From the NCBI GenBank assembly GCA_041690495.1, contig JAWLHE010000001.1, positions 11,369 through 75,368 on the forward strand: a stretch of 64,000 nt of DNA. Reading direction: 5' to 3'. The DNA comes from Alphaproteobacteria bacterium (GTDB lineage Bacteria > Pseudomonadota > Alphaproteobacteria > CACIAM-22H2). Positions within the stretch are counted from its first letter, which is position 1. Every line of letters starts with the position of its first letter. Below, piece after piece: positions 14,997-48,526 of the stretch. Both the position numbers and the translations under genes were made by a program. A model generated the notes under the pieces. The model did not search any database, had not been told where the DNA came from, and worked only from the letters and a program-made list of their open reading frames with translations.

Positions 14997-15261
14997 CGAA
15001 CCGGCTGCTCCAGACTAACTAACACATTGATATACCGTCCCCGGCTTGAGCGGCGGGCGGTGCGTTCCTATCTATCTACAGGGATGCAGCAGGCCAAGCG
15101 CAGAACGATCTCCCTCGACCGTCAACCGGACCGGGCTCTAGACCCCGAACCCCGGGGCCGGTACCTTGGTTATATAGGGGCCGGCTGCCCCAGCAAGGGT
15201 GGCGGATTCAGCCACAGCGGAGCCGTGCCGGACCGGCGGCCCAACACGCGGGGATAAATTC

Positions 15262-31404: not shown

Positions 31405-32559
31405 TCAGCGATAGGGGTCGGCCGCGTCGCGCAGGCCGTCGCCGAGGAAGTTGAAGGCGAGCACGGTGATAATCACCGGGACCACCGGGGCCAGCAGCCA
31501 CGGATAGAGCGCCACCACGTTGATGTTCTGCGCCTCGGTCAGCAATACGCCCCACGAGGTGATCGGCGGGCGCAGGCCGAGGCCGAGGAAGGACAGCGCC
31601 GTCTCGCCGAGGATCATCGCCGGGATCGACAGGGTGGCCGAGGCGATGAGATGGCTCATGAAGCTCGGAAGGAGGTGGCGGCCGATGATGCGGCGCGGGC
31701 TTGCTCCCATCAGCACCGCCGCAGTGCAGAAATCCTCCTCGCGCAGCGCCAGCAGCTTGGAGCGCACCGCACGCGCCAGCCCCGTCCAGTCGATCAGGCC
31801 GAGGATGACGGTGATGCCGAAATAGATCAGCAGCGGATTCCACGACACCGGCAGCGCCGCGGACAGCGCCATCCACAGCGGCAGTTCGGGGAACGAGCGG
31901 ATGATCTCGATCACGCGCTGGATGACGTTGTCGACCCAGCCGCCGTAATAGCCGGCCAGCCCGCCCAGCGTCATGCCCAGAGCGAAGCTGATCGTGATGC
32001 CGATCAGCCCGACGGTGAGCGAGATGCGCGCTCCGTAGATCAGGCGCGAGAGCATGTCGCGGCCGAGCCGGTCGGTGCCGAGCAGGAACAGCACGCCGTC
32101 CTGCGCCGGGCAGACCAGATGCAGATTCGCCGGCACCAAGCCCCAGAAATCGTACGGGTCGCCGCGGCAGAAAAAGCGCAGCGGATAGACCCGATCGTGA
32201 TCGGGCGTGTACTCGCGTTTCAGGGTGTCGAGGTCGAGATTGTACTTGAAGCCGTAGACGAACGGCCCGATGAAACTGCCCTCGTGGAACAGGTGAACGG
32301 TCTGCGGCGGCGCGTAGATGAAATCGGTGTTGCGCGTGTAGAGGCTGTAGGGCGCCAGGAACTCGGCGACCAGGATCGACGCATACATGACCAGCAGGAT
32401 GACCCCGGAGATGACCGCGAGCCGGTGGCGCTTGAGCTTCCACCACATCATCCGCCACTGCGAGGCCATGTAATAGCGCTCGAGTTCCGGCGTCAGCCGC
32501 TCCGCCTCCTGCGGGTCGAACGGCGCCGTGCTGGCGTAATGCTCGAGCCGTGTGCTCAT
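31405..32559 (-). CDS. yejE: ABC transporter permease, YejE/DppC-OppC family
   Basis: 384 aa; BPD-transporter permease signature; N-terminal extension typical of YejE. Confidence 0.88.
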   Translation of the reverse strand: MSTRLEHYASTAPFDPQEAERLTPELERYYMASQWRMMWWKLKRHRLAVISGVILLVMYASILVAEFLAPYSLYTRNTDFIYAPPQTVHLFHEGSFIGPFVYGFKYNLDLDTLKREYTPDHDRVYPLRFFCRGDPYDFWGLVPANLHLVCPAQDGVLFLLGTDRLGRDMLSRLIYGARISLTVGLIGITISFALGMTLGGLAGYYGGWVDNVIQRVIEIIRSFPELPLWMALSAALPVSWNPLLIYFGITVILGLIDWTGLARAVRSKLLALREEDFCTAAVLMGASPRRIIGRHLLPSFMSHLIASATLSIPAMILGETALSFLGLGLRPPITSWGVLLTEAQNINVVALYPWLLAPVVPVIITVLAFNFLGDGLRDAADPYR

Positions 32560-33554
32560 CTGGTGGCGCCGCCATGCAGCCGGATGCGCGGGTCGAGAGC
32601 GGCCAGCGCCAGGTCGGACAGGAACACGCCGACCACGACCAGAAGCGCCTCGATCATCAGGAACGAGCCGGCGAGATACATGTCCTGGCTCTGCAGCGCG
32701 CGCAGCAGCATCGGGCCGTTGGTCGGCAGCGACAGCACCACCGAGACGATCGCGGCTCCGGAGATCAGGCTCGGCAGCAGGCTGCCGATATCGGCGATGA
32801 ACGGATTGAGCGCCATGCGCAGCGGGTATTTGAACAGCAGGCGGCGCGGCGGCAGCCCCTTGGCGCGCGCCGTCACGACATACTGTTTCTGCAGTTCGTC
32901 AAGGAGGTTCGCGCGCAGCCGCCGGATCATCGCCGCGGTGCCGCCAAGGCCGATGACGATCACCGGAATCCACAGGTGCTCGAGGATCGAGCCGAGCTTG
33001 CCCCAGGACATCGGCTTGTCCATGTAGACCGGATCCATCAGCCCGCCGATCGACGTGCCGAACACGGCATTGCCGACATAGAGCAGCACCAGCGCCAGCA
33101 GAAAGCTCGGCGTCGCCAGACCGAGGAAGCCGACGAGGGTCAGCCCGTAGTCGCCGAGCGAATACTGGTGAGTCGCCGAGTAGATGCCGATCGGAAAGGC
33201 GACAACGTAAGTGAAGATCACGGTCGCGATGGCGACGATGAAGGAGAGCGCAAGCCGCTCGCCGATGACGTCGCGCACCGGCAGGTTGTATTCGAAGGAC
33301 CACCCCAGGTCGCCCTGGACGAGGCCGACCACCCAATGGAAATACTGCTCGATCGGCGGCCGGTCGAGGCCGTACTGCTCCCGCAGGAAAGCGATCCGCT
33401 CCATGCTGGCGCCTTCGCCCTGGGCCTGCAGCTCCATCATCATCGTCGTCAGATAGTCGCCCGGCGGAAGCTGGATGATGGTGAAGACGATGGCGCTGAT
33501 CGCGACCAGGGTCGGGACCATGATCAGAATGCGGCGGATGAGATAGCTCAGCAT
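32556..33554 (-). CDS. yejB: ABC transporter permease, YejB/DppB family
   Basis: Likely start MLSYLIRRIL…; DppB-type permease with EAA-like loop; 4-bp overlap with yejE. Confidence 0.88.
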   Translation of the reverse strand: MLSYLIRRILIMVPTLVAISAIVFTIIQLPPGDYLTTMMMELQAQGEGASMERIAFLREQYGLDRPPIEQYFHWVVGLVQGDLGWSFEYNLPVRDVIGERLALSFIVAIATVIFTYVVAFPIGIYSATHQYSLGDYGLTLVGFLGLATPSFLLALVLLYVGNAVFGTSIGGLMDPVYMDKPMSWGKLGSILEHLWIPVIVIGLGGTAAMIRRLRANLLDELQKQYVVTARAKGLPPRRLLFKYPLRMALNPFIADIGSLLPSLISGAAIVSVVLSLPTNGPMLLRALQSQDMYLAGSFLMIEALLVVVGVFLSDLALAALDPRIRLHGGATR

Positions 33555-33567
33555 GCAAGGCCCGTGG

Positions 33568-35480
33568 TCATTGCGCCGCCGCCGTGTTCGGCGCATCGGC
33601 GAACCAGAACGTGTCCGGATGATAGATGCCGAAGAATGCGCCGGGGTCGAAATTGTAGACGCCGTCGGTCGGCACGTTACGCAGCCGATTGGATACGACC
33701 ACCGGCTGCTTCACCGCGGCGATCAGCCCGATCGAATAGACCTGCTCGGCGTGGATGGCGAGCATCCTGTGCCACACGGCGCGGCGCTGCTCGGTCGTGG
33801 TGGCGTGCTGCCATTCCGCGTTCAGTTTCGCGAGCTCGATGGCGTGCGGGTCGTCCACCTTCTCGCCGCTGGCGCCGCCGGTTTCCGCATACTGCCCCCA
33901 TTTCGGCCATTGCAGGTGCTGCTGAGAGGTCGGCGCAAGCTCCGCGGGCGACATGTCGGCGGTCGGGATGCCGTTCTCCAGGCCGATCCAGATGGTCATG
34001 ACGCTCTCTCCGGAGAAGACCCGGTTGCGGAACATCTCGCGCTGCAGCGGACGCGAATACAGCTTGACGCCGACGTCGAGCCAGGAATCGTGGATCAGCT
34101 CGAGCACGTCGGTCTGCTCGGTCTCCTCTCCTGCTGTCTCGACGATGACCTCGAGCGGGCGGCCATCGGGCAGAAGCCGCACGCCGCGGCTGTCGCGTTT
34201 GGTGAGTCCGATCTCGTCGAGCAGCCGCTTTGCCTCCGCCCTGTCGAACTTCGCATAGGCGTCGCGATACTCGGGGCGATAGAGCGGGCTTTTGGGCAGG
34301 ACCGTGTTCTGCCCCTCGATCGCCAGGCCGAAATAGACGACCTGGTTGATTTCGTGCCGGTTGATCGCGAGCGACAGCGCACGGCGGAAGCGCACGTCGC
34401 GGTTGAGCTCGCGCCAAACGCGGTCGTTGGCGTTGAGGTTGGGATAGAGCGCCAGATGCGCCCCCTTGGCGGTATCCCAGAGATGCACCGAAAAGTCGTT
34501 GCGCTTCGCCGCCTGCCTCAGGAAGGTGAAATTGCTGAAAGAGAGATTGCGTGCCTGGATATCCGATTCGCCGGCGCCGGTCTTGGCGGGAATCAGCCGG
34601 CTGTCGGACACCGACGCGACGACGCGGTCGATATAAGGGAGCTGGCGCCCGTTGACGTCGATACGGTGGAAGTACGGGTTGCGCACGAACACGAAACGGT
34701 CGGCCGGCGGATGGGTCTGCGGCACCCATGGCTCGAGCGAGGGCAGATCCGGATTGTCGTTGCGGTACTGGTTGTCGAGGCGATTGTGTAGCTGCGCCCA
34801 CCCGCGCACATGGGCATTGCGAACCGCCTCCTCGAGTTTCGCGGTTTCGGCGTAGCGCTTGTGGAAGCGCTTCAGGTAATGCGCGGGCCGATAGATATAG
34901 AGCGGTGCCGCGCCGGCGAGCGCCTGCAGGAAATAGGGGTTGGGCGTTGGCCAGGCGTAGCGGACCGTGACCTCGTCGATGATCGTCACTTCGGGCGGCT
35001 TGCCGTCTATGATCAGGCTGCGCGGGGGCCCGACGGGCGACAGCTTCTTGTCGTTGGCGACGTCTTCCCAGTAGTAGCGGAAATCCTCGGTCGTGAAGGG
35101 ATGGCCGTCCGACCAGCGGTGGCCGCGGCGGAGCTTCAGGGTGAAGATGCGGTTTCCCGTGTTCTCGATGCTCTCGAGAATGTCGGGCTTGAGCTCGAGA
35201 TTGGCGTTGTAGCCGACCAGGCGCGCATAGCCGTAGACGACCATCATCCGGATGTCCTGGCTGCGGCCGATCAGGAGCCGTGCCTCGCCGCCGTGCCGCC
35301 CCGGCTCGGCGCCGGGCCGATCGGGTTTCAGCACGAGCGGCACCTCCGGCAGGCGTTGCTCGACCGGCGGCAATCTGCCTTCGCGGACATCCTTCTCCAG
35401 CGCGGGGCTGTCGATCAGCGCCGCTGCCGCCGGGCCGCCGAGCGTCGCGGCCAAAAGAATTGCGGCAAGCAGCGCGCGGA

Positions 35481-35484
<4 letters not shown>
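33568..35484 (-). CDS. yejA: extracellular solute-binding protein, family 5 (YejA-like)
   Basis: ATG at 35482-35484 (MIRALLAAILLAATLGGPAAA signal peptide); 638 aa SBP_bac_5 homolog; ATGA overlap with yejF. Confidence 0.85.
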
Positions 35485-37377
<1,893 letters not shown>

Positions 37378-37394
<17 letters not shown>

Positions 37395-37875
37395 TACCCA
37401 ATGCCCCGAAATTCGCTCGCGTGGCGTCCGACAGACTCAGCCCTGCGGCGCGCGCGGCTTCGGCAGCCTGGCGCGCGATTTCGTTGAAACCTTCGAGGGT
37501 GGAATCGAGGCGGATAGTCCCGCTATCGGGACCGCCATTCCCTTTGAGCATCAACTGCATCCACCCTCCCGTCCGGTCGAATCGCGTTGAGTAGTAATTA
37601 AGCCGGACGTCCTTCAACTTCTCCCACGCCAACCTAGCCCGCCATGGTGAAGAAAGCGATATGTCGTGCGCTGTGACGGTTATCACAGCTACGCTCCGCC
37701 GCCACGTCCGGATGCCGAAAATGGCGAAAAGGGTGGCCAGCGGCAACAGAACGAACTGCGCCGCTGACGTCGCGGGGATGGCGAGCGCGGGGCCGAGCGT
37801 GAGTGCGAGCCCGGCGCCGGCGCGGATGAAGTCGCCGGTCAGCGACTGCCGCGGATAGCGATGGTAGGCGGTCAT
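37378..37875 (-). CDS. hypothetical membrane protein (two N-terminal TM helices plus soluble domain)
   Basis: 165 aa; balanced composition; 4-bp overlap with the upstream deacetylase gene and 17-bp overlap with yejF. Confidence 0.5.
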
Positions 37876-38618
37876 GATCGGAACAGCGCGGCCGCGTCGA
37901 CCAGCCTTGCTGCGGGGTGGCGGCGCAGCGCCGCCAGGAACGCATCGACAAACGCCCAGGCGGCCTCATCGTGGGCGAGGTGGTGCGTCAGCAGGCCGGT
38001 CGGCTCGTCGGGATCGGCGTCGCCGATGCGGCGGGCGCGCAGATGAGCGACGGCCAAGCCGAGCGCAACGTCGCTGCCGCCGAAGGCGCGGGTGGTCCAG
38101 TTCATGACGTCGACATGGGTATTGACCCGGACGAGTCCGGGTACCGCGCGTCTGCGGGGGCCGTAGGTCGACAGGCCGATATAGCCGGCGGCGGGGAGGG
38201 CAGCGGCAAGCTCGCCTGCGATACGGTTATGCGGCGGAACCAGCGCGCGGGTCCAGCGGCCGAACAGCGCGTCCATGACGAGCTGGCCGCGTGCGAGCTC
38301 GCCGAGCATAAAGGACAGCGGCCGGTGCGGCCCGAGCTCGGCCTTCGAGGCGCCGACCGGCGCATGGTTCGCATGCATCCAGCCGTGCTGGACCACGGTC
38401 ACCAGAGGTCCTTCGATCCGCTTCCCGAGCTCGGGCTCGGCCCGGGCGGGGATCACCGCGATGGTGATCGGCGCGTCGTGCCTGCGGTGCAGCTCGAGCA
38501 GCCGGTCGAGGGCCGGCGTCGGCGCCGTTGCGTCGTCGTCGCGCCACCAGAAAGTTGCAGTCCGGCCCGATTCGCGCCAGCATTCGAGTTCGCCGGCCAG
38601 ATCCGCCCAGGAGCTCAA
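37872..38618 (-). CDS. polysaccharide deacetylase family protein
   Basis: 248 aa; N-terminal WWRDDD and His-rich motifs typical of this deacetylase family. Confidence 0.65.
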   Translation of the reverse strand: MSSWADLAGELECWRESGRTATFWWRDDDATAPTPALDRLLELHRRHDAPITIAVIPARAEPELGKRIEGPLVTVVQHGWMHANHAPVGASKAELGPHRPLSFMLGELARGQLVMDALFGRWTRALVPPHNRIAGELAAALPAAGYIGLSTYGPRRRAVPGLVRVNTHVDVMNWTTRAFGGSDVALGLAVAHLRARRIGDADPDEPTGLLTHHLAHDEAAWAFVDAFLAALRRHPAARLVDAAALFRS

Positions 38619-39772
38619 GCGCCGGCACCCCGCGTCGTCAGCCAGGTGCGGATCAGCCGGGCGGTTTCCGCCGCGCCGTCGCAGCGCAGCGCCCCGGACT
38701 CGGGCCGCTTCATCGCCGCCGCGCGGTCGATCGCCCCGGCGAGGGTCGCCGGCGTCAGTGTCGACTCCGCGACCATCTCGGCCCAGCCGCGATCGACCAG
38801 TGCGGCGGCGCGCACGGTCTGCTCGGTTTCCTGGCCGGCGGCGAACGGCACCAGTACGGCACGCGCGCGCGCGTTGAGAATGTCCATCACCGTATTATAG
38901 CCAGCCTGCGCCACCGCCACATGGCAGCGCGCGAGCAGGCCGGGAAAATCGGCACGCGCCGGCTCGACGATACAGCCCGCACTGGTGGCTGCGGCCAATT
39001 CCATCCGGATCGCGGCAGGAAGATTGGGGCCGACCAGCAGACGCCAGACGCGGCTGCCTTGCGCGCTTTGCAGCCGTGCGGCGAGCGCTGCGCGCAGCAG
39101 CGGCGCGCCGACGGCGCCACCGCCGACCGAGACGACGATCTCGCCTTCGCCATGGCCGGCCGGCGGCTCTGGTGCGGCGCCATTCGCAACATAGCCGGTA
39201 TAGACCACGCGGTCGGCAATGCGGTCCTCGGGAAAGCTCTTGGCCAAGGGGAGGAACCCCGGATCGCCGTGAACGAGCACGTGGTCGTACCAGGCGCGGA
39301 CCCGCTCGGCCATCTCGTAGAGCTTGCGTTCGTCGCTCTTCTGCGCGAGCACGTCGCGCACCGACGACAGGATCAGCGGCTGCGGCCGTTGCCGCCGCGC
39401 CGCGGCGATCAGCGGAATCAGCTCGAATGCCAGCATTCGCCGCCCGAGCGGGAACAGCTCGGTAATGACCACATCGGGACGCGTGGCAGCGAACCACGAT
39501 AGCAATGCCTCGCTGCGCGCCGCCCGCCAGGCGTCGTCGACCGGCCGACCCTCGGCATCGACCAGTTTCCTGAATGTCTCGTCCGTGGCCCGCATCGGCG
39601 GGAGCTGCACCAGTCGTGCGCCGCCGCAATCGAGGTCGGGGATCGGCGGGCCGCCTGAAACGAGCACGACGTCGAAGCCGTCGCGTGCCAGTGCCGCGGA
39701 GATCACCGCCGCCCGGCGCAGATGCCCGCTGCCGAGCAGATGCTGAACGTGAAAGAGGATGCGCGCGGTCAT
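38615..39772 (-). CDS. glycosyltransferase, GT28/MurG-like C-terminal domain (GT-B fold)
   Basis: ATG at 39770-39772 (MTARILFHVQHLLGSGHLRR…); C-terminal AGYNT motif; paralogous to the 42868..44094 gene. Confidence 0.75.
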   Translation of the reverse strand: MTARILFHVQHLLGSGHLRRAAVISAALARDGFDVVLVSGGPPIPDLDCGGARLVQLPPMRATDETFRKLVDAEGRPVDDAWRAARSEALLSWFAATRPDVVITELFPLGRRMLAFELIPLIAAARRQRPQPLILSSVRDVLAQKSDERKLYEMAERVRAWYDHVLVHGDPGFLPLAKSFPEDRIADRVVYTGYVANGAAPEPPAGHGEGEIVVSVGGGAVGAPLLRAALAARLQSAQGSRVWRLLVGPNLPAAIRMELAAATSAGCIVEPARADFPGLLARCHVAVAQAGYNTVMDILNARARAVLVPFAAGQETEQTVRAAALVDRGWAEMVAESTLTPATLAGAIDRAAAMKRPESGALRCDGAAETARLIRTWLTTRGAGA

Positions 39773-40356
39773 TGCACCTCGAGCGGCAGGTTGAGCTTCT
39801 CGACGCGCGGCACGCCTCCCCTGTCCAGCGCGAACAGGTGCAACGCGTACAGGTCGAGTCCTTCGGGCGGCTCGCCGGTCATATCCCAGTTGACGGCGCG
39901 CGCATAGATGGCGCGGATGACGCCGCGGTGGGTCACCGCCAGGGTCGGCCGAGCCGCGGCGCCGATCTCCCGCAGCAGCGGCGCAACGCGCGCCTGCACG
40001 TCGCGGGGACTCTCGCCGCCTGGCGGACGGAAATCCAGCCCGCGCGCCTCGTTCGTCGCCAGATCGGTGCCGTGCGCGTCGCGCAGCTCGGACAGCGTAC
40101 GGCCCTGGAACTCGCCCCAGTCCATCTCGATCAGGCGCGGATCGGGCGACACCACCAGGCGCAGCATTGCCGCGGTGTCGAGACAGCGCCGCAAGGGCGA
40201 GGACAGCGCGCGGAACCCGGCATAGGCGTCGGGGATGCGGCGCCGCAGGAGATCGGCGCGGCTCTCGTCGAGGAGCGGGACGTCGCTGCGCCCCTGCAGC
40301 CGGCCGGCCTTGTTCCACGCCGTCGGCGCGTGGCGGATCAGCGCCAGCAGGGTCAT
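39769..40356 (-). CDS. histidine phosphatase family protein
   Basis: RHG motif (LALIRHAPTAWN), second His motif (AVTHRGVIRA); ATGA overlaps on both sides. Confidence 0.8.
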   Translation of the reverse strand: MTLLALIRHAPTAWNKAGRLQGRSDVPLLDESRADLLRRRIPDAYAGFRALSSPLRRCLDTAAMLRLVVSPDPRLIEMDWGEFQGRTLSELRDAHGTDLATNEARGLDFRPPGGESPRDVQARVAPLLREIGAAARPTLAVTHRGVIRAIYARAVNWDMTGEPPEGLDLYALHLFALDRGGVPRVEKLNLPLEVQ

Positions 40357-41501
40357 GCGCGCTCCGCGGCCACGGCCTGCAGGATCCGGTCGAGCGCGGC
40401 GCCGGCGGAAACGACGTCATGCTCCGCCGCAACTTTTGCCATCGCCGCGGCACCATAATCGAGACGCCGCTCGGGTGCAGCGAGCAGCGTGTCAACCGCC
40501 GCGGCGAATGCCGCCGCATCGCCCGGCGGCGTCAGCAGACCGGTTCGCTCGTGGACGATCAGCTCGGGCACACCGCCGCTTCTGCCCGCGACCGCCGGCA
40601 ATCCCGCCGCCTGGGCCTCGAGAATGGCCATTCCGTAGGCCTCGTTGATTGCCGGCCAGACCAGGAGATCGGCTGCCGCGAGAAGGCCGGGCAGCCGCCC
40701 GGGATCGACCGCGCCGACGTGGACGACGCGATCGCGGACCGGCGCCAGTGCCGCCTCGACCTCCCGCCGCGCCGGTCCATCGCCGATGGTCAGGAGCCGC
40801 CAGGGTCTCGCGCGCAAGACGTCCAGGGCTGCGCCGAGCACGCGGTACGAGGCCAGCTTGTCGCCAGCACGCATCATCGCGACGGCGACGAGCCAAGGCT
40901 CGTCGGACGGGAGATGGAAGCGCCCGGCGATTTCGCGTCGCTGGTCGGCGCGACCTTGCGCCGCCGTGGCGAATGCAGCCGATTCGAGGAATGGCTTCAG
41001 GTGGCGCAGACGCGCAGCGTCGCGCAGATGCGGGATGACGCCGTCATCGTCGGCGGGATTGAGCGAGATTACGGCGTCGGCGCGCTTGAGCGCCGCAAGC
41101 GTCGCTTCGTGACCGAGCGACCACGGGCCGCCAGCGCGCTTTGCTGCGACCGATGCCTCGACGACGACGTACGGAATGCCGAGCCGGGCGGCGACGCGTG
41201 GCCCGATCCAGTCCGGCGCCTTGTGATAGAGGTGATAGGTCAGCCATGCGCGGGGACGCCGCGCCGGCGTACGGGCGCCGAGCTGCTCGATCAGCCGCGC
41301 CGCGAGACGTCCACCGAGCTCCGCCAGACGGTGCTGGCGTTCCGTATCGCCGCCGCCGTCATAACTGCGCAGCCGTGCGGCGAGCTCTACCTCGTGTCCG
41401 GCGCGGCTCAGCGCCAGCCGAAGGAGCTGTGCCACGCGCCGGTCGCCGGACGGGACCGGATGATCGGGCGGTTTGAGCGGGGCGTAGAAGGCGATGCGCA
41501 T
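40353..41501 (-). CDS. glycosyltransferase family 4 (GT-B, retaining)
   Basis: 382 aa; C-terminal E-x7-E region (…INEAYGMAILEAQAAGLPAVAGRSGGVPELI…). Confidence 0.85.
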   Translation of the reverse strand: MRIAFYAPLKPPDHPVPSGDRRVAQLLRLALSRAGHEVELAARLRSYDGGGDTERQHRLAELGGRLAARLIEQLGARTPARRPRAWLTYHLYHKAPDWIGPRVAARLGIPYVVVEASVAAKRAGGPWSLGHEATLAALKRADAVISLNPADDDGVIPHLRDAARLRHLKPFLESAAFATAAQGRADQRREIAGRFHLPSDEPWLVAVAMMRAGDKLASYRVLGAALDVLRARPWRLLTIGDGPARREVEAALAPVRDRVVHVGAVDPGRLPGLLAAADLLVWPAINEAYGMAILEAQAAGLPAVAGRSGGVPELIVHERTGLLTPPGDAAAFAAAVDTLLAAPERRLDYGAAAMAKVAAEHDVVSAGAALDRILQAVAAERA

Positions 41502-41519
41502 GCGGTCGGCGAAGGTCGG

Positions 41520-42815
41520 TTACCTCGCCGCTTCGCGCGCCGGCGCGCGTCCGTCTGCAATCGTCGAAGACAACAGAAGGGCGGCAATGCGGCCGATGCC
41601 GCGCTCGAGCGGGAAGTCGCGGCGCACCCGCGCCTCGCCGGCGGCCGCGAGGCGCGCGCGCAGGGCGGGGTCGCTGACAAGGCGTGTGATTGCCGCTGCC
41701 ATGGCGGCGGGGTCGCCCGGCGGAACCAGTGTGCCGGTGACGCCGTCCGCGACGAGCTCGGGTATCGCCGAGACGGCGGTCGCCGCCACCGGGCAGCGCT
41801 GGCTCAACGCCTCGAGCAGGACGTTGGGCAGGCCGTCGCGATCGCCGTCGCCGCTGATCCTGCTTGCCAGAACGAACAGGTCGGCCTCGCGATAGGCCGC
41901 GCGCACCACGTCCTCGGTCTGGGCGCCGCGCCACGCGATGCGGTCTGCGAGGCCGCGCCGCTCCGCCTCGCGCCGGAGATCGGGGAGCAGCGGTCCGCCG
42001 CCGATATGGATCATCCGCCAGTGCAGGTCGCGCGGCAGCAGGGCCAGAGCCGCGAGCAGGTCGCCGTAGCCCTTTTTCGGCACCGCGCGCCCGACCGACA
42101 GCAGGATGACCGGATCGGCCGGCGCCGTTCCGTCGCGGGGCGGGCGCGATGCGTCGTGCGGTGGGAAACGCGCGGCATCGATGCCGTGGTAGACGAGCTC
42201 GACTTTCGCCGGCGCGGCAGCCAATTCGGCGAGGTGCTCGCGTCCCGCACGCGTGCAGGTCACCGCCCATGCCGCGTCGTCGAGCTTCTCGCGTTTCTCC
42301 CAGCCGGGCGTGGTCCAGATGTCCTTGGCGTGCGCCGACACGCTCCACGTCAATCCGGCGAGAAGCGCGGCATAGCGCGCGACCGATGCAGGCGTGTGCA
42401 GAAAATGCGCGTAATAGTGCACGACATCCGGGCTGCGCTCCGCCGCCAGCACCAGCGCCTGGCCGAAGCGCCGGATGCGATTGGGCGTCGGATCGCGAGC
42501 GAGGTCCTTGAGCCAGGCGGCGCGTGCGCGCGCATAGCCGGGCAGACGCCGCACCGCACGCCAGGCGCGCCAGACCCGCGCCGGCTCGCGCCACAGATAT
42601 TCGGGCAGATACGTCAGCGCGGCGCCGACTGACCGGTTGAGCGGGTGCACGCGCTTGTCGGTAGGATGGCGCAGCGAATAGATGCGCAGGTGCACGCCGC
42701 TGCGCTCGAGCGCGCGCAACTCCTGGGCGATGAAGGTTTCCGACAGGCGCGGCCAGCCCTTGACGACCACGCCGATTGCGGCGACGGATGGCTGGCTCGT
42801 CGGCTCGTGAGGCAT
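41520..42815 (-). CDS. glycosyltransferase family 4
   Basis: ATG at 42813-42815 (MPHEPTS…); about 431 aa; GT4 C-terminal domain (…GLPNVLLEALSQRCPVAATAVSAIPELV…). Confidence 0.85.
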   Translation of the reverse strand: MPHEPTSQPSVAAIGVVVKGWPRLSETFIAQELRALERSGVHLRIYSLRHPTDKRVHPLNRSVGAALTYLPEYLWREPARVWRAWRAVRRLPGYARARAAWLKDLARDPTPNRIRRFGQALVLAAERSPDVVHYYAHFLHTPASVARYAALLAGLTWSVSAHAKDIWTTPGWEKREKLDDAAWAVTCTRAGREHLAELAAAPAKVELVYHGIDAARFPPHDASRPPRDGTAPADPVILLSVGRAVPKKGYGDLLAALALLPRDLHWRMIHIGGGPLLPDLRREAERRGLADRIAWRGAQTEDVVRAAYREADLFVLASRISGDGDRDGLPNVLLEALSQRCPVAATAVSAIPELVADGVTGTLVPPGDPAAMAAAITRLVSDPALRARLAAAGEARVRRDFPLERGIGRIAALLLSSTIADGRAPAREAAR

Positions 42816-42867
42816 GAAGCAATCTAGCGTCGAAGCGGCGCCCGTCGGAAGCAGGATGCGCAGACCT

Positions 42868-44094
42868 TCAGCCGTGATCGGCGAGGGCGAGACGGCGTGC
42901 AGCCGGCTGGACGACGCGGTCGGGCAGCCAGCGGTTGACCAGGCGCCCGACATTCTCGAAACCGTCGAGCAGACCGGGCACCACCATTTCCGACGGGCGG
43001 GGCTGGCCGGGCAGGCGGCGCAGCGCGTCCGCCATCAACCGCGCGTCGCGCTTGCCGTCGTCCTGCAGCATGCGGACGAGGCCGAGATCCTGGGCACGGC
43101 TGGCGCGGATGTACTGTTCGAGCCGGGGTGCCGTGCGCGGCACGATGATCGCGCGCTTGTTGAACGAAAGGATCTCGCAGAAGGTGTTGTAGCCGCCCAT
43201 CGCCACCACGCCGGCGGCGCGGTCCATCAGCTCCTCGAGATGCGTGTCGAAGGTGATCGCCTCGACGTGCCGCAGACGCCGCGCGCGCTCGATGAAATCG
43301 GTCTGCAGCTCGGGCTGCATGAACGGTCCAAGGACCAGCACCGCACGGTGCGGCAGGTTGCGGTCGTATTCGTAGGCGCGCAGCACCCAGTCGACCAGCG
43401 TCTCGCCGTCGCCGCCGCCGCCGGTCGTCACCAGGACATAGGGCTCCTCGGGATTCTCGTGCCGGCGCGTGCGCTGCGTGGCGACCGGCACCGTGCGCGG
43501 CAGATAGCCGGTGTAGCTGATCTTGCGCTTGACCGAGCGAGGGACCGCGATGCCCGCAAGCGGATCGCAGATCTGCGGCAGCCCGTAGATCCAGATGTCG
43601 TCGTATAGATCGCGCAGCGCCGGCAGCACGTTCTTACGTTTCCATTCCGGCTCCAGCAGCACCGGGTCGTCCATTACGTCGCGCAGGCCCAGCACCAGCG
43701 GCACGCCCATCGACTTGAGCATCACCAGCGTGTCGTGGACCTCGCCGCGGAAGCCGAGGGGTTCCTTGTCGACCAGGAACAGGTCGGGGCCGAACGCCTC
43801 CGCCGTATGGCGGATGATCGAGGAGCGGATGCCGATCGTCTGCTGGATGTCGATGTGCAGGTTGAGCGAGGTGTATTCGCCGTTGCGCAGCTTGATGACG
43901 CCGGGCACGCGCACGAAATCGACGCGGGTCTTGAAGTCGAAGCTGCCGATGATCGGCGAGCCCGATAGGATCAGGACCGAGAGATCCTTGTTGCGTTCGA
44001 CCAGTGCATGCGCGAGGGCGCGGCAGCGGCGCAGATGGCCGAGGCCGAGCGTATCGTGGCTGTAGATGAGAATCCGGGAGCCGCCGCTTTTCAT
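42868..44094 (-). CDS. glycosyltransferase, GT28/MurG-like C-terminal domain (paralog)
   Basis: Start MKSGGSRILIYSHDTLGLGHLRR… (paralogous N-terminus to the 38615 gene); MGGYNT motif; about 408 aa. Confidence 0.75.
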   Translation of the reverse strand: MKSGGSRILIYSHDTLGLGHLRRCRALAHALVERNKDLSVLILSGSPIIGSFDFKTRVDFVRVPGVIKLRNGEYTSLNLHIDIQQTIGIRSSIIRHTAEAFGPDLFLVDKEPLGFRGEVHDTLVMLKSMGVPLVLGLRDVMDDPVLLEPEWKRKNVLPALRDLYDDIWIYGLPQICDPLAGIAVPRSVKRKISYTGYLPRTVPVATQRTRRHENPEEPYVLVTTGGGGDGETLVDWVLRAYEYDRNLPHRAVLVLGPFMQPELQTDFIERARRLRHVEAITFDTHLEELMDRAAGVVAMGGYNTFCEILSFNKRAIIVPRTAPRLEQYIRASRAQDLGLVRMLQDDGKRDARLMADALRRLPGQPRPSEMVVPGLLDGFENVGRLVNRWLPDRVVQPAARRLALADHG

Positions 44095-44290
44095 GCGCTG
44101 TGCTATCTCGCTCAAGGGCTGGCTCTCCGTCGCTCCCCAGCGGAGGACTATGGCATAAGGCCGCGGGGGCGAAAAAGTCACCTTTTTTATTGACTGGGGC
44201 TACAAAGTGCGCGGATTTTGGATCGATTTTACAATTCAGCGCAAGGGCTTAATGATTCGGAGCATTATTGGAGGGCCTTACCGCGGGCTC
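44095..44290. promoter_or_regulatory. AT-rich divergent promoter island between the glycosylation operon and the PCuAC-like/ABC gene set
   Basis: Local AT-rich stretch (…gaaaaagtcaccttttttaTTGACTggggctacaaagtgcgcggattttggatcgattttacaattcag…) in a 65% GC background. Confidence 0.45.
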
Positions 44291-44764
44291 CGCGGCCGGC
44301 TCCCGTATGCGGCGGGCGGCCGGTCCGGGATGCCGCTGGGGCCGCTCTGCGGGATCGCGCTTGCCGTGCTGATCGGCGGGCCCGGCGAAGCTCACGACCT
44401 GCGCCACGGCGACCTGCATGTCGGTCACGCCTGGACACGCCCGGCCGCGGCCGGCGGTGCCGCGGAAGTCTATTTCCCGATCGTCAACCGTGGGGCGCGC
44501 GCGGATCGGCTGACCGAGGTGCGCACGTCGATCGCGGCGGAAGCCGGCTTGGCGGAAACGCGAGACGGAACTGCGGAACGCCTCGATGCGATTGCGCTGC
44601 CCGCCGGGCGGCCGGTGGCGCTGCGTCCGGGCCGGTTCCATGTCCGTCTTGAGGGGCTGGCGCGCAGGCTGGAGGCCGGCGATCAATTCATCGTGACCCT
44701 GATTTTCGCGGCGGCAAGCCCGGCCGATGTCACCGTGATCGTCGAATCGGCGGCCGGCCACTGA
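44207..44764 (+). CDS. PCu(A)C/DUF461-like periplasmic protein lacking the Met/His copper ligands
   Basis: Pattern H.W.RP…Y..I.N.G…L……HVRLEGL…GD.F.VTL.F collinear with copper chaperone PCuAC, but H(M)-Mx/MxM ligand positions are V/L/R/E; start may be an internal Met (MIRS… or MPLGPL… signal). Confidence 0.45.
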   Translation: MRGFWIDFTIQRKGLMIRSIIGGPYRGLRGRLPYAAGGRSGMPLGPLCGIALAVLIGGPGEAHDLRHGDLHVGHAWTRPAAAGGAAEVYFPIVNRGARADRLTEVRTSIAAEAGLAETRDGTAERLDAIALPAGRPVALRPGRFHVRLEGLARRLEAGDQFIVTLIFAAASPADVTVIVESAAGH

Positions 44765-44886: not shown

Positions 44887-47523
44887 ATGGAATCGAACCT
44901 CTATCGCTTCGTTCTGAAATACGCGCCGCGCGAAACCGCATGGGTCTGCACGCTTACCGTGCTGTCGATGCCGTTCTACTACCTTTCGCTCGAGGTGCCG
45001 AAGACGATCGTCAACAAGGCGCTGCTGCAGAAGGACATTACGTTTCCGACGGCCATTCTTGGTGTGGAGGTAGGCCGCGTCGCCTACCTGTTCCTGCTCT
45101 GCGCCGCATTCTTCTTCCTGTTCGTCACCAATACCGGCCTCAAGCAATACATCAATACGCTGAAGGGCAGGCTGGGCGAGCGGTTGCTGCGGCGATTGCG
45201 CTATGACCTGGTCTCGCGCGTCCTTCGTTTTCCGCTGCCCCATTTCCGCAAGGTTTCGGCCGGCGAGATCATCCCGATGGTGACATCGGAAGTCGAGCCG
45301 CTCGGCGGCTTTATGGGCGACGCGATTGCGCAGCCGCTGATCCAGGGCGGCACGCTTCTGGTGATCATCACCTTTCTGTTCATGCAGAATCCCTGGATCG
45401 GCCTGGCCGCGATCTCGCTCTATCCGCTGCAGGCCTACCTGATCCCCAAGCTGCAACGTCGCGTGAACCAGCTCGGCAAGGAGCGCGTACGTGCGGTGCG
45501 CAAGCTGTCGGAGCGCATCGGCGAGGCCATCCAGGGCGTCCAGGAAGTCCACGCTCACGGCACCACGACCTGGGAGCGTGCCGACTTCTCCGACCGGCTC
45601 GGGCTGATCTTCAAGATCAGGTTCGAGATCTACCAGCGCAAATCGTTCGTCAAGTTTCTGAACAATTTTCTCAACCAGATGGTGCCGCTGCTGTTTTATT
45701 CGCTCGGCGGCTATCTGGTGATCCGGGGCGACCTGTCCGTCGGCGCGCTCACAGCGGCACTGGCGGCGCACAAGGACATGTCGGCGCCATGGAAAGAGCT
45801 GCTCGACTATTACCAGCAGAGTCAGGATTCGAAGATCAAGTACGAGCAGGTCACCGAGCAGTTCAAGCCGGAGAACATGTTCGACGAGACGCTGGAGCAG
45901 CCGATCGATGAGCCGCCGGGCCGGCTTGAAGGCGAGATCGAGGCGACCAATCTCGCTCTCTACGAGGACGCCCAGACCAGGCTGCTTGAAAGCACCAGCT
46001 TCAGAATCGCGCCTGGAGAGAAGGTGGCGCTCGTCGGCCCTTCAGGCGGCGGCAAGGAGGCGGCTGCCATGCTGCTCGCGCGTCTCTATCAGCCGAGCGC
46101 CGGCCGCATTGCTGTCGGCGAGCGGGATCTGCGGACGATTCCGAGTGCGGTGCTCGGCGCGCGCATCGGCTATGTCGGACCGACCGCCTATCTCTTTTCC
46201 GCCAGCGTGCGGGACAACCTGAGCTATGGCCTGCGCCAGCGGCTGGTGAAGGCCCGCGAGGATGCCCAGTTGCGCCAGAAGCAGCGCTGGCTCGCCGAGG
46301 CGGCGCGCGCGGGCAACCTCGCGCTCGACACCCAGGCCGAATGGATCGACTGGCGCGGCGCGGACCTTTCTGGCGATCAGGGTCCGACCGAGGCGATGAT
46401 CGAAGCGCTGTCGCTCGTCGGCCTCTCGGAGGATCTCTACCACTTCGGTCTGCGCGGGACGATCGATCCGAAGAAGCGCAGCGACATCGCGGATTGCATC
46501 GTAAAGGCGCGCGCGGCGCTGCAGGAGCGGATCAGGGATCCCGAGCTGGCGCCGCTGGTCGAGGTGTTCGATCCGGGGCGCTACAACAACAATGCGACGA
46601 TGGCGGAGAACCTGCTGTTCGGAACGCCGGTCAGCGCCGCCTTCGACATCGATCGCCTCTCCGAGAACGCGTATGTGCTTGGCGTGCTCGACAAGGTCGG
46701 CCTCACCGATGATCTGGTCGCCATCGGCCGCGAGGTCGCGACCACCATGATCGAGATCTTCGCCGACCTGCCGCCCGGGCACGAGTTCTTCGAGCAGTTC
46801 AGCTTCATCTCGTCGGACGAGCTTCCGGAATTCCAGGCGCTGCTCGGCCGTGTCGACGGCAAGGGCATGACCCCGGCGGACCGCGCGCGCCTGCTCACGC
46901 TGCCTTTCAAGCTGATAGAGGCGCGCCACCGTCTGGGTCTGATCGACGACGCCCTCAAGGCGCGAATCCTCGAAGCGCGGCACGTCTTCCGCGAGGATCT
47001 GCCCGAAACGACACGCTCGGGTATCGAGTTCTTCGATCCGGCGGCCTACAATGCCGCAACGTCGCTGCAGGACAATATCCTGTTCGGGAAGCTCGCCTAT
47101 GGGCAAGCACGGGCCGCCCAACGGGTCGGCAAGCTCATCGTCGAGATCCTGGACGAGCTCCATCTCCGCCCAGCGGTGCTCGAAGTCGGGCTCGAATACC
47201 AGGTCGGCGTGGGCGGCGCGCGCCTGAACCAGGGCCAGCGCCAGAAGCTGGCGATCGCGCGATCTCTGCTCAAGCGCCCGGATATCATGATTCTCAACGA
47301 GGCCACGACGATCTTTGATTCGACGACGCAGGCGCACATCATGGATGGCATTTTCAAGGCGTGCGAAGGCCGCACCGTGATCTGGGCGCTGCATACGCCG
47401 GCGATGGCCAAGCACTTCGATCGTGTCCTCGTTTTTGCGGACAACCGCCTTGCAGAGTCCGGTGATTTCGGCGAGCTCGGGCGCCCGGGCACGCTGTTCA
47501 CCGAGCTGCTCGCGGCGGCATGA
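44887..47523 (+). CDS. ABC exporter (type I TMD + NBD) with degenerate ATPase motifs and triplicated helical-subdomain segment
   Basis: 878 aa; 6-TM exporter domain; Walker A GPSGGGKE, signature LNQGQRQK, Walker B IMILNEAT, H-loop IWALH; three tandem copies of the Q-loop/ENIxFG segment (46169-46231, 46560-46623, 47026-47088). Confidence 0.85.
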   Translation: MESNLYRFVLKYAPRETAWVCTLTVLSMPFYYLSLEVPKTIVNKALLQKDITFPTAILGVEVGRVAYLFLLCAAFFFLFVTNTGLKQYINTLKGRLGERLLRRLRYDLVSRVLRFPLPHFRKVSAGEIIPMVTSEVEPLGGFMGDAIAQPLIQGGTLLVIITFLFMQNPWIGLAAISLYPLQAYLIPKLQRRVNQLGKERVRAVRKLSERIGEAIQGVQEVHAHGTTTWERADFSDRLGLIFKIRFEIYQRKSFVKFLNNFLNQMVPLLFYSLGGYLVIRGDLSVGALTAALAAHKDMSAPWKELLDYYQQSQDSKIKYEQVTEQFKPENMFDETLEQPIDEPPGRLEGEIEATNLALYEDAQTRLLESTSFRIAPGEKVALVGPSGGGKEAAAMLLARLYQPSAGRIAVGERDLRTIPSAVLGARIGYVGPTAYLFSASVRDNLSYGLRQRLVKAREDAQLRQKQRWLAEAARAGNLALDTQAEWIDWRGADLSGDQGPTEAMIEALSLVGLSEDLYHFGLRGTIDPKKRSDIADCIVKARAALQERIRDPELAPLVEVFDPGRYNNNATMAENLLFGTPVSAAFDIDRLSENAYVLGVLDKVGLTDDLVAIGREVATTMIEIFADLPPGHEFFEQFSFISSDELPEFQALLGRVDGKGMTPADRARLLTLPFKLIEARHRLGLIDDALKARILEARHVFREDLPETTRSGIEFFDPAAYNAATSLQDNILFGKLAYGQARAAQRVGKLIVEILDELHLRPAVLEVGLEYQVGVGGARLNQGQRQKLAIARSLLKRPDIMILNEATTIFDSTTQAHIMDGIFKACEGRTVIWALHTPAMAKHFDRVLVFADNRLAESGDFGELGRPGTLFTELLAAA

Positions 47524-47544: not shown

Positions 47545-48003
47545 ATGTCGATCAAGGAAGAAGTCGAGATTCTCCGCAACATTCCGCTTTTCGCAAAGCT
47601 CGAGCCGGCGAAACTGAAACTGCTGGCTTTCACCAGCCAAAGACTGACTTTCGAGGCCGGCCAGCCGCTGTTCCAGCAGGGCGATCCCGGCGATGCCGCC
47701 TACATCGTCCTGGACGGAGAGGCGGAGGTCATGATTCACACGGCGCAGGGACCGGTTCGGGTCGCGCGGGTCGGGCGCCACGCGATCATCGGCGAGGTGG
47801 CCATACTGTGCGAGGTGCCGCGCACCGCGACGGTGATCGCCAGCTCGCAGCTCACTACATTGCGCATCGACAAGGATTTGTTCTTCCGGCTGGTCAACGA
47901 GTTCCCGCAGATGGCGGTCGAGATCATGCGCGAGCTCGCGCACCGGCTCGAGAAGACCAACGAGCAGCTCCGCGTTGCCGTGACGCGCGCCGGAAACGCC
48001 TGA
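47545..48003 (+). CDS. stand-alone cyclic nucleotide-binding domain protein
   Basis: 152 aa; cNMP-binding beta-roll (…FEAGQPLFQQGDPGDAAYIVLDGEAEV…GEVAIL…RTATV…); no DNA-binding domain; SD ggagga precedes the ATG. Confidence 0.85.
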   Translation: MSIKEEVEILRNIPLFAKLEPAKLKLLAFTSQRLTFEAGQPLFQQGDPGDAAYIVLDGEAEVMIHTAQGPVRVARVGRHAIIGEVAILCEVPRTATVIASSQLTTLRIDKDLFFRLVNEFPQMAVEIMRELAHRLEKTNEQLRVAVTRAGNA

Positions 48004-48004
48004 C

Positions 48005-48526
48005 ATGGCGCCCTCGGATCGCGGGCGCAAGGGCAGCCGTCTGGACAGCTTCATCCGCCGCCTCGAGGCGCAGCGCGCCTGTCTCGACTGGGCGACGGCC
48101 GCGGTCGCCGATGTTCCGGGTGCAACCCTCGAGCTCGGACTCGGCAACGGCCGCACCTACGATCACCTGCGAACGAGGCTGTCGGCCGGTCGCGAGATCT
48201 TCGCTTTCGACCGCCAGGTCGCGGCACATCCCGACTGCATTCCCGACGCCGATCATCTGCTTGTCGGCGACTTCCGTGACACCGTACCGGCTTTCGCCGC
48301 GCGACATGGGGCGACGGCGGCTCTCGTCCATGCAGACATCGGCTCGGGCGACGCGGCCGCCACCGCGGCGCTGGCGCGCTGGCTTGGACCGGCGCTGATA
48401 CCGTTGCTTGCCGCGCATGCGATCGTTCTGTGCGACCAGGCGCTCGATGCGCAGGGACTGCGCCTTCAGCCGCTTCCGCCCGGCGTGCCGGCGGACCGCT
48501 ATTTCATCTATCGCCGTGTGCTCTGA
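48005..48526 (+). CDS. small methyltransferase-like protein (putative class I SAM-binding fold)
   Basis: 173 aa; motif-I-like LELGLGNGRT and acidic motif (LLVGDF); start codon 1 nt after the cNMP-protein stop (TGAcATG). Confidence 0.5.
   Translation: MAPSDRGRKGSRLDSFIRRLEAQRACLDWATAAVADVPGATLELGLGNGRTYDHLRTRLSAGREIFAFDRQVAAHPDCIPDADHLLVGDFRDTVPAFAARHGATAALVHADIGSGDAAATAALARWLGPALIPLLAAHAIVLCDQALDAQGLRLQPLPPGVPADRYFIYRRVL

Follow-up and report, generated by a model that had tools for sequence, protein, structure and literature searches.

The closest described counterpart of the locus considered here is the red/opt region of Rhizobium. In R. leguminosarum 3841, it comprises redA (pRL110050), redB (pRL110049), redAh (pRL110048), optCBAD (pRL110051-54) and cyaA (pRL110055) (PMC11103875 supplement); the names redA (“membrane-anchored protein”) and redB are also in use in R. 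etli CIAT 652. Insertion sequencing (INSeq) classed redB, pRL110047 (an ATP-binding cassette (ABC)-fold protein), pRL110046 (a cyclic-nucleotide-binding protein) and pRL110056 (a dehydrogenase) as essential or defective in nodule stages (bioRxiv 10.1101/2020.05.07.082560), and pRL110046 is also required in root attachment (bioRxiv 10.1101/2022.11.21.517457). The locus described here was found in a stretch of 64,000 nucleotides from an alphaproteobacterium of the lineage CACIAM-22H2 (assembly GCA_041690495.1, contig JAWLHE010000001.1, positions 11,369 to 75,368), hereafter the window. It contains a block of six genes for two GT28-like glycosyltransferases (GT28A and GT28B), two GT4 glycosyltransferases (GT4a and GT4b), a histidine phosphatase and a deacetylase-like protein of the CE4 type. 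According to our analysis, the six genes supply the biosynthetic half of a conserved module that comprises about 14 genes, the red/opt-type locus of Rhizobium. An earlier note on this DNA had read the block as a pathway built around a glycosyl-phosphate synthase and its phosphatase. That reading is partly supported; it overlooked the co-transcribed oligosaccharide-type ABC importer, the unit of ABC-fold and cyclic-nucleotide-binding proteins, and the named Rhizobium orthologs.

Relationship to the Rhizobium red/opt locus

In Rhizobium and Sinorhizobium, the genes follow one another in the order cyclase, importer (ATPase, binding protein and two permeases), GT28A, GT4a, GT28B, ABC-fold protein and cyclic-nucleotide-binding protein, with Methyltransf_17, DUF3095 and UDP-sugar dehydrogenase genes close by. 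The proteins of the window are 52–53% (GT28A, compared with redA of R. etli and R. leguminosarum), 53–54% (GT4a) and 42–44% (GT28B) identical to their counterparts. The third glycosyltransferase of the Rhizobiaceae loci is the ortholog of GT28B, not of GT4b. Identity is 62–70% for the importer ATPase and permeases (64–67% for the OptB-like and 69–70% for the OptC-like permease), 39% for the ABC-fold protein, 55% for the cyclic-nucleotide-binding protein and 45% for the Methyltransf_17 protein. All four importer genes are present, and the whole set lies in one neighborhood. The Rhizobium arrangement differs from that of the window in the position of the importer upstream of the transferases and in the addition of the adenylate cyclase, DUF3095 and UDP-sugar dehydrogenase genes. 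GT4b, the phosphatase and a local deacetylase were absent from the Rhizobiaceae loci, and L083-L087 held no GT4b ortholog.

Published tables label pRL110048 and pRL110050 (redAh and redA) as MurG (UDP-N-acetylglucosamine:Lipid I transferase) in the class “murein sacculus.” This annotation is very likely wrong, judging from the profile comparisons, since the orthologs in the window score 36 bits or nothing against a murG cut-off of 250. A paper on the Clr regulon of S. meliloti was considered as a lead and set aside; it concerns a different cluster of pSymB.

Conservation and synteny of the locus

A scan of one genome per species gave at least 542 confirmed matches of GT28A, and its relatives at 65–80% identity number in the thousands. 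The matches listed belonged mostly to Rhodospirillales-type Alphaproteobacteria (Azospirillum, Inquilinus, Roseomonas) and to Burkholderiales. The window proteins were mapped onto the 80 loci returned, 54 of which had enough downstream and 59 enough upstream sequence; the taxon labels were taken from the titles of metagenome-bin records, part of which are evidently unreliable. In the downstream set, we found GT4a in 51/54 loci, GT4b in 50/54, GT28B in 49/54, the importer ATPase in 47/54, the deacetylase in 46/54 and the phosphatase in 44/54; in several Burkholderiales loci the phosphatase was gone and every other gene kept. In the upstream set, the cyclic-nucleotide-binding protein was present in 42/59 loci and the ABC-fold protein in 37/59, the latter in none of the Burkholderiales-labeled loci. 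The methyltransferase-like genes noticed earlier on both flanks of the block fared differently: the Methyltransf_17 gene at 48005 is conserved (37/59), whereas the gene at 30543 was syntenic in 0/59 loci. The median identity to the window was 70% for GT28A across the 80 loci and 70% for the importer ATPase over 52 loci, compared with 58% for the neighboring exonuclease III.

With its order shuffled, the gene set is found again in Rhodospirillales, Rhizobiaceae, Rhodobacterales and Burkholderiales. In three Azospirillum/Roseomonas loci, GT28B, the deacetylase and the importer ATPase have been relocated as one unit, and the ATPase stays behind the deacetylase in the rearranged loci L049, L066 and L067. 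In another locus (L075), GT28A separates the importer ATPase gene from that of the binding protein, and still other orders of the set occur in Azospirillum sp. B510 and on Sulfitobacter plasmids. In L002, L011 and L013, GT28A stands alone. Our strongest inference is that the transferases, the importer and, in Alphaproteobacteria, the unit of ABC-fold protein, cyclic-nucleotide-binding protein and methyltransferase are functionally coupled, because their association outlasts repeated rearrangement across four orders.

Some relatives carry additional genes. A UDP-sugar dehydrogenase gene lies near the locus in Rhizobium, Sulfitobacter and an E. coli plasmid, and in a few loci a metallophosphoesterase or a glutamine amidotransferase gene has been inserted between GT4a and GT4b. 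The dehydrogenase and amidotransferase neighbors suggest that uronic acids or uronamides may be involved in these relatives, and the metallophosphoesterase insertion hints at extra dephosphorylation.

Plasmids of enterotoxigenic E. coli carry a distant version of the locus (32–36% identity) in the vicinity of the enterotoxin gene sta1 (L088; pCFSAN004179G, 159889-170067). It combines one GT28-like and two GT4 genes with genes for a canonical ABC exporter, a nucleotide-sugar dehydrogenase, an outer-membrane protein of the alginate-export type and two APH-family kinases, and we found no published description of an E. coli plasmid locus of this type.

Glycosyltransferases

The window is GC-rich (~0.63-0.73), and genes were therefore called with the aid of third-position GC, which was 0.79–0.90 in all six genes and backs their coding status. 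The six genes of the range 38615-44094 in the earlier note are real, and their family assignments were correct (by Pfam, and for the deacetylase by fold), but the deacetylase that it counted in falls outside that range (37872-38618). Both N-termini quoted for the GT28-like pair were located on the minus strand, with starts at 44094 and 39772, and the paralogy proposed for the two proteins is borne out by a full-length alignment (26% identity, E 2e-16) that includes a common N-terminal GxGHLRR motif. The start of GT4a is most likely at 42815, which corresponds to Met47 of a 477-amino acid (aa) open reading frame (ORF) and gives a protein of 431 aa.

GT28A and GT28B matched PF04101 with 30.5 and 44.3 bits, respectively, both over the gathering threshold (GA) of 22. 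They are GT28-like and not MurG, because neither had a Pfam match to the N-terminal GT28 domain, GT28B scored just 36.3 bits against TIGR01133 (murG, cut-off 250) and GT28A did not match it, the sequence search of the PDB yielded nothing usable for GT28A (either with the single sequence or with a 16-sequence profile), and the fold is a generic GT-B fold. The nearest folds to an AlphaFold2 model of GT28A were GT-B enzymes of GT1/GT28, namely CalG1-4, GtfA/B/D, YjiC, MurG and MGD1, a result that is generic for GT-B and does not separate lipid from small-molecule acceptors. Residues 47–69 of GT28A form an invariant loop with low model confidence.

Both GT4 proteins exceeded the gathering scores of Glycos_transf_1 and Glyco_trans_1_4 (107.7 and 107.4 bits for GT4a, 87.1 and 96.1 bits for GT4b), and neither reached the cut-off of any NCBIfam equivalog. 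GT4a showed full-length yet sub-threshold similarity to GT4 enzymes of the EpsE/WcaL type. The best NCBIfam matches of GT4b, all sub-threshold, were BshA (79.6 bits, cut-off 273.7) and MshA (54.9 bits, cut-off 462.5), both of which use UDP-N-acetylglucosamine (UDP-GlcNAc), and a GlcNAc-phosphatidylglycerol synthase. Weak NCBIfam matches of the transferases also included sucrose-phosphate synthase (SPS) and macrolide glycosyltransferases. Pfam and NCBIfam revealed no GT-A synthase (GT81, GT55 or GT78) and no GT20 enzyme among the four transferases. All four are basic, with isoelectric points (pI) of 9.0–10.2; the housekeeping genes scored alongside gave 7.3–12.

Histidine phosphatase and deacetylase

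The phosphatase matched PF00300 with 131.6 bits (GA 21.7), and its catalytic residues R8, H9, R57, E77 and H143 are all invariant; it is predicted to be catalytically intact. As the earlier note had assumed, it sides with phosphatases and not with true phosphoglycerate mutases. Its nearest solved structures are alpha-ribazole-P phosphatase of T. thermophilus (E 1e-15) and GpgP of M. tuberculosis (E 6e-12), and cofactor-dependent phosphoglycerate mutases (dPGMs) follow at 1e-4 or worse. Every dPGM equivalog of NCBIfam scored <37 bits against cut-offs of 225–366, and TIGR01258 scored 20.9 (cut-off 81.7). TIGR03162, the model for the CobC alpha-ribazole phosphatase, was also missed (106 bits, cut-off 162.9), and there are no cobalamin genes in the neighborhood. 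The idea of GpgP working with a GpgS partner failed, as GpgP is just the second-best solved relative and the block encodes no GT-A synthase. The likeness to GpgS and to methylglucose lipopolysaccharide (MGLP) synthesis put forward earlier thus comes down to superfamily membership.

The proposed pairing of a synthase with this phosphatase can be kept in part. The phosphatase gene has ATGA overlaps at both ends, so that its overlaps with GT4b and with GT28B are 4 nt long, and the GT4b and phosphatase genes are invariably adjacent wherever both occur; the phosphatase is, however, an accessory gene. The pair may well be an optional branch of the locus rather than its core. A second branch-1 histidine phosphatase gene of the window (14436-15014, minus strand; PF00300, 97.5 bits) adjoins secB and is unrelated to the locus phosphatase (29% identity).

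The deacetylase scored 18.7 bits against PF01522, under the GA of 23.1, and gave at most a chance match in the PDB sequence search with the single sequence or the profile. An AlphaFold model built from 25 homologs (mean predicted local distance difference test score, pLDDT, 88.7) was compared with solved structures by Foldseek. Ranked by E-value, the 48 best matches were of the CE4 type (PdaC, Bc1960, chitin deacetylases, ArnD), with the exception of a phage turret protein at rank 38; E-values were as low as 9e-8 (PdaC), TM-scores were 0.6–0.8, and chito-oligosaccharide deacetylases occur among the matches. The Asp/His/His set of the predicted metal site (D27-D29, H78 and H82) is invariant in the 25 homologs. 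The protein has neither a signal peptide nor a transmembrane segment and is therefore expected to act in the cytoplasm, like NodB.

Importer and operon structure

The six-gene block is predicted to be co-transcribed with an ABC importer of the PepT/Opp family. The gaps are 52 nt after GT28A and 18 nt after GT4a, from GT4b on the genes mostly overlap by 4 nt (including the two permease genes), and the overlap of the predicted binding-protein ORF with that of the first permease is 41 nt. A scan for promoters and terminators gave counts at or below chance. Between the deacetylase and the importer ATPase lies a gene for a 165-aa protein, which overlaps its two neighbors by 4 and 17 nt, respectively. 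No match to this protein was found in Pfam or NCBIfam, and a tblastn homolog occupies the same position in 39/54 loci; it is likely to be an unannotated membrane component of the system.

None of the equivalog cut-offs for YejABEF, GsiABCD, OppABCDF or DppABCDF was reached by the importer proteins, whose affiliation stops at the level of the PepT/family 5 superfamily. The ATPase reached 608 bits with GsiA (cut-off 1077) and 542 bits with YejF (cut-off 834). The nearest solved structures to the binding protein are 5IPW of T. maritima (4.5e-83), SPH1118 (2.3e-70) and the alpha-galactoside binder AgpA (1.8e-28); peptide binders follow at 1e-9 or worse, and the peptide-binding models gave <=77 bits against cut-offs of 390–1100. 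SPH1118 of Sphingomonas carries the annotation of an oligopeptide binder, yet its ligand is unsaturated trigalacturonate, and it does not bind peptides (PMC9314435). By these comparisons, the binding protein is far nearer to oligosaccharide binders than to peptide binders, and a ligand of the former kind may be expected. An identity with the Yej/microcin-C importer was rejected: the scores are sub-cut-off, and the binding protein is not YejA-like.

Divergent unit

Upstream of GT28A and divergent from it lie the genes for the ABC-fold protein, the stand-alone cyclic-nucleotide-binding protein and the Methyltransf_17 methyltransferase, the last of which begins 2 nt past the stop of its neighbor. 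The membrane domain of the ABC-fold protein is MsbA/HepA-like (PF00664, 80.3 bits), its best NCBIfam match is MsbA, and PF00005 matched in two stretches (68.7 bits). The protein of the window has Asn in place of the Walker B Asp, lacks the Q-loop Gln and shows LNQGQ as its signature. Among 45 aligned homologs, no common Walker B variant keeps the Asp (Asn or Ser is found instead), the signature is mostly LSAAQ-like and the Walker A Lys is often lost. The protein may bind ATP without hydrolyzing it, which would be unusual for a homodimeric half-transporter.

In Sulfitobacter, the two are fused, with the cyclic-nucleotide-binding domain at the C-terminal end of the ABC-fold protein (residues 903–987 of 1034). 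Burkholderiales-type loci that lack the pair of ABC-fold and cyclic-nucleotide-binding proteins carry an adenylate/guanylate cyclase gene divergent from GT28A in several cases (L028, L030 and L054 among them) and a gene for a cyclic-nucleotide-gated ion channel in one. Cyclic-nucleotide signaling therefore appears to be tied to the locus in both classes.

The gap of ~790 bp between the divergent operons is occupied by a gene for a PCu(A)C copper chaperone. It was syntenic in just 2/59 loci, and a link to copper was dropped as a probable coincidence. The same family occurs beside GT28A in L001, copper-binding and DUF411 genes adjoin a lone GT28A paralog on a plasmid of Azospirillum oryzae (L084), and cyo genes lie beside the Rhizobium locus. 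No credible RNA element was revealed by Rfam, either in the whole window at gathering thresholds or in the 800-bp divergent region at E-values up to 1. Elsewhere the window consists of housekeeping chromosome, with rho, hemH, aroE, coaE, secB, mltA, lutABC-like genes, holA and ftsK.

Table 1. Genes of the locus in the window, additional genes in related loci (coordinates within the respective locus), and the Rhizobiaceae loci used for comparison.
Feature	Coordinates	Strand	Basis or remark
GT28-like glycosyltransferase A (GT28A; GT-B fold; Rhizobium redA ortholog)	42868-44094	minus	Glyco_tran_28_C PF04101
GT4 glycosyltransferase a (GT4a; Rhizobium redB ortholog)	41520-42815	minus	Glycos_transf_1 PF00534
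GT4 glycosyltransferase b (GT4b; accessory)	40353-41501	minus	Glyco_trans_1_4 PF13692
Branch-1 histidine phosphatase (accessory)	39769-40356	minus	His_Phos_1 PF00300
GT28-like glycosyltransferase B (GT28B; paralog of A; Rhizobium redAh ortholog)	38615-39772	minus	Glyco_tran_28_C PF04101
CE4 (NodB-fold) deacetylase-like protein, predicted cytoplasmic	37872-38618	minus	Polysacc_deac_1 PF01522 below GA; fold match
Small membrane protein, 165 aa, no known family	37378-37875	minus	Hydrophobic N-terminal region
Fused double ATPase of PepT/Opp-family ABC importer (OptD-like)	35481-37394	minus	GsiA/YejF similarity
Periplasmic solute-binding protein, 638 aa, signal peptide, family 5 oligosaccharide-binding branch	33568-35484	minus	Nearest solved structures
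ABC importer permease (OptB-like)	32556-33596	minus	NCBIfam Opp4B/NikB-type matches, sub-cut-off
ABC importer permease (OptC-like)	31405-32559	minus	NCBIfam Opp4C-type match, sub-cut-off
PCu(A)C copper chaperone	44252-44764	plus	PF04314, 70 bits
ABC exporter-fold protein, 878 aa, ~250-aa insert in degenerate nucleotide-binding domain	44887-47523	plus	PF00664 and split PF00005
Stand-alone cyclic-nucleotide-binding protein	47545-48003	plus	PF00027, 72.4 bits
Methyltransf_17 S-adenosylmethionine (SAM)-dependent methyltransferase	48005-48526	plus	PF12692, 178.8 bits
Metallophosphoesterase (calcineurin-like) insertion between GT4a and GT4b, with small SnoaL-like ORF	L015 12475-13326; also L037	plus	Sequence motifs only
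AsnB-like glutamine amidotransferase insertion between GT4a and GT4b, Rhodoferax bin	L081 12471-14507	minus	Sequence motifs only
Cyclase or cyclic-nucleotide-gated channel gene divergent from GT28A	L064 7784-9109	minus	
Cyclase or cyclic-nucleotide-gated channel gene divergent from GT28A	L053 7527-8852	minus	
Cyclase or cyclic-nucleotide-gated channel gene divergent from GT28A	L026 7042-8358	plus	
R. leguminosarum 3841 locus	pRL110046-pRL110056		
R. etli CIAT 652 locus	RHECIAT_PA0000036-45		
S. meliloti locus	pSymB ~831-845 kb		

Proposed function and alternative explanations

The interpretation that we favor, which we hold at a little short of an even chance, is that a short glycan is made in the cytoplasm, methylated, passed over the inner membrane under cyclic-nucleotide control and retrieved by the importer. 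Four cytoplasmic GT-B transferases would assemble the glycan without priming of the acceptor by a polyprenyl-phosphate transferase; the RedA-like GT28A, the RedB-like GT4a and the RedAh-like GT28B, which occur in every lineage, would form the core trio, with GT4b as an accessory fourth enzyme. In the lineage studied here, GT4b may add an N-acetylhexosamine to a phosphorylated acceptor or intermediate, after which the phosphatase would strip the phosphate and the deacetylase would remove the N-acetyl group, following the logic of MshA/MshA2/MshB or PIG-A/PIG-L. The Methyltransf_17 enzyme is predicted to methylate the product. The ABC-fold protein and its cyclic-nucleotide-binding partner could then allow its passage through the inner membrane in the presence of cAMP or cGMP, and the co-transcribed importer, with a binding protein of the oligosaccharide branch, would recover the free glycan or a released head group from the periplasm.

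Several points weigh against this interpretation. The ABC-fold protein has a nucleotide-binding domain that is degenerate throughout the family, so the protein may not pump, and its absence from the Burkholderiales loci would imply another exit route or none. The donor and acceptor assignments draw on sub-threshold family resemblance. In the Rhizobium screens, redA and redAh were neutral, and optAD mutants gained rhizosphere fitness and showed no defect (bioRxiv 10.1101/2020.05.07.082560); redundancy of the paralogs is a possible reason for the neutrality of redA and redAh. No paper defining the product of the locus was found in our literature search.

A more specific scenario, which we regard as unlikely, is a “secrete-and-retrieve” system widespread in Proteobacteria. 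In this scenario, a de-N-acetylated, methylated glycan would leave through a non-hydrolyzing, cyclic-nucleotide-gated ABC-fold conduit and would be sensed or recovered by a dedicated oligosaccharide-type importer, serving as a diffusible signal or shared good that Rhizobium needs in nodule infection.

It is unlikely, though worth weighing, that the product is instead a membrane glycolipid or another envelope glycoconjugate. A tri- or tetrasaccharide head group would be built on diacylglycerol, phosphatidylglycerol, phosphatidylinositol or a lipid A precursor and remodeled by the phosphatase and deacetylase in the manner of glycosylphosphatidylinositol (GPI) or phosphatidylinositol mannosides (PIM); the ABC-fold protein would flip the lipid, and the importer would recycle the head group, much as LpqY-SugABC recycles trehalose in mycobacteria. 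Enzymes with lipid acceptors occur among the matches (MurG and MGD1 by fold, GlcNAc-phosphatidylglycerol synthase by family), the ABC-fold protein is nearest to MsbA, a small membrane protein is conserved within the operon, and the nodule-stage phenotypes are typical of envelope defects. The invariant loop of GT28A also appears to resemble flexible lipid-capture regions. The basic pI of the transferases fits membrane lipids as well, but such values are common in this GC-rich genome. Moreover, there is no syntenic acyltransferase or lipid-synthesis gene, a dedicated high-affinity importer is unusual in such pathways, and a flippase role sits poorly with an ABC-fold protein that has a degenerate ATPase site and is missing in Burkholderiales.

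The model of the earlier note, a small cytoplasmic solute or oligosaccharide made through a glycosyl phosphate, appears decidedly unlikely. A GT4 enzyme would act on 3-phosphoglycerate, a sugar phosphate or an inositol phosphate, the phosphatase would free the glycoside for extension and methylation, and the importer would regain leaked product. GT4 does include enzymes that act on phosphorylated acceptors (SPS, MshA, GlgM), two of which are weakly matched here. The pairing of synthesis with re-uptake is classic for compatible solutes, and the Ggt transporter recovers leaked glucosylglycerol. The overlapping and always adjacent GT4b and phosphatase genes, the intact phosphatase that groups with GpgP and other phosphatases, and the syntenic methyltransferase at 48005 are all consistent with this model. 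Yet the phosphatase is dispensable in ~10/54 loci and in all Rhizobiaceae loci, and the GT81, GT55, GT78 or GT20 synthase that it calls for is lacking, as is synteny of the methyltransferase at 30543. A set of four transferases, a deacetylase, an ABC-fold protein and cyclic-nucleotide control is foreign to known solute pathways, and osmotic-stress genes lack consistent synteny: a gene for a mechanosensitive channel occurs inside the Sulfitobacter locus only.

We consider it quite improbable that the importer takes up an oligosaccharide from the environment or from a plant, or some other small molecule, which the deacetylase, the phosphatase (or mutase) and the GT-B enzymes then process or glycosylate. 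The GT-B enzymes would act as phosphorylases or as GT1-like transferases for small molecules, and Alphaproteobacteria would expel the modified compound. The top fold neighbors of GT28A are natural-product GT1 enzymes (CalG1-4, GtfA/B/D, YjiC), macrolide glycosyltransferases are among the weak matches, and GT28A is embedded in the importer operon of L075. Opp-type importers are known together with CE4 deacetylases from chitin-oligosaccharide catabolism, a precedent in line with the chito-oligosaccharide deacetylases among the fold matches. However, synteny does not extend to any glycoside hydrolase, kinase or sugar-catabolic gene, and we know of no GT1/GT28-type enzymes that act as phosphorylases. 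The UDP-sugar dehydrogenase and amidotransferase neighbors elsewhere point to synthesis, and the very high conservation favors one fixed endogenous substrate.

Finally, an ordinary operon for lipopolysaccharide (LPS) core, O-antigen, capsule or exopolysaccharide (EPS) with transporters beside it by chance, which the earlier note had also disfavored, is very improbable, for although GT4a and GT4b show sub-threshold similarity to EpsE, WcaL and LPS transferases, the Rhizobium neighbor pRL110056 is described in the literature as O-antigen-related, and the distant E. coli plasmid relative has an alginate-export-type outer-membrane protein, the NCBIfam equivalogs for LPS, capsule and EPS all scored far under their cut-offs, the scanned genes of the 64-kb window include no priming phosphoglycosyltransferase, Wzx/Wzy, Wzm/Wzt, KpsMT, polymerase, chain-length regulator or Waa-family equivalog, no ortholog was found in a characterized locus of this kind, an identity of 65–80% over two proteobacterial classes is unlike that of surface-polysaccharide transferases, and the synteny with the importer persists through rearrangement.

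At least several hundred species carry the module, including Azospirillum, Rhizobium, Sinorhizobium, roseobacters and Burkholderiales. Identification of the locus product would explain the symbiosis phenotypes of the Rhizobium orthologs and would give bacterial cAMP/cGMP signaling a concrete output. It would also correct two widespread labels, MurG for redA-type genes and oligopeptide transporter for the importer.

Comparison with characterized systems

The locus is made of known protein families, in a combination for which no characterized counterpart was found. The GpgS/GpgP pair and MGLP synthesis resemble it in that GpgP is a branch-1 histidine phosphatase and one of the nearer solved relatives of the locus phosphatase; MGLP synthesis also uses a GT4 enzyme and methyltransferases. 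The locus differs from them in the absence of the GT81 enzyme GpgS, the GH57 enzyme DggS and an acyltransferase, and in a phosphatase that is accessory and nearer to the T. thermophilus alpha-ribazole-P phosphatase.

The synthesis of mycothiol (MshA, MshA2, MshB) and of GPI (PIG-A, PIG-L) offers a closer likeness in logic, with GT4-type transfer of an N-acetylhexosamine to a phosphorylated acceptor, dephosphorylation and de-N-acetylation, and GT4b weakly matches BshA and MshA. However, the deacetylase of the locus belongs to CE4 and not to LmbE, there is no cysteine ligase, and three further transferases, two transport systems and cyclic-nucleotide control are present.

The family 5 oligosaccharide binders SPH1118 of Sphingomonas, AgpA of S. 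meliloti and the Thermotoga “OppA” (5IPW) match the binding protein of the locus far better than peptide binders do. These binders belong to catabolic or chemotactic systems with no link to glycosyltransferases, whereas the putative ligand of the locus would come from its own transferases under the interpretation favored above.

The Nod-factor machinery (NodC, NodB, NodS and NodIJ) shares with the locus the cytoplasmic synthesis of an oligosaccharide, a cytoplasmic CE4 de-N-acetylase, a SAM-dependent methyltransferase and an ABC-type exit. In the locus, however, the transferases are GT-B enzymes (GT4 and GT28-like) in contrast to the processive GT2 enzyme NodC, and there is no NodA acyltransferase. 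The place of NodIJ is taken by the putative exporter, a fused protein like MsbA whose ATPase site is degenerate, and a dedicated importer accompanies it.

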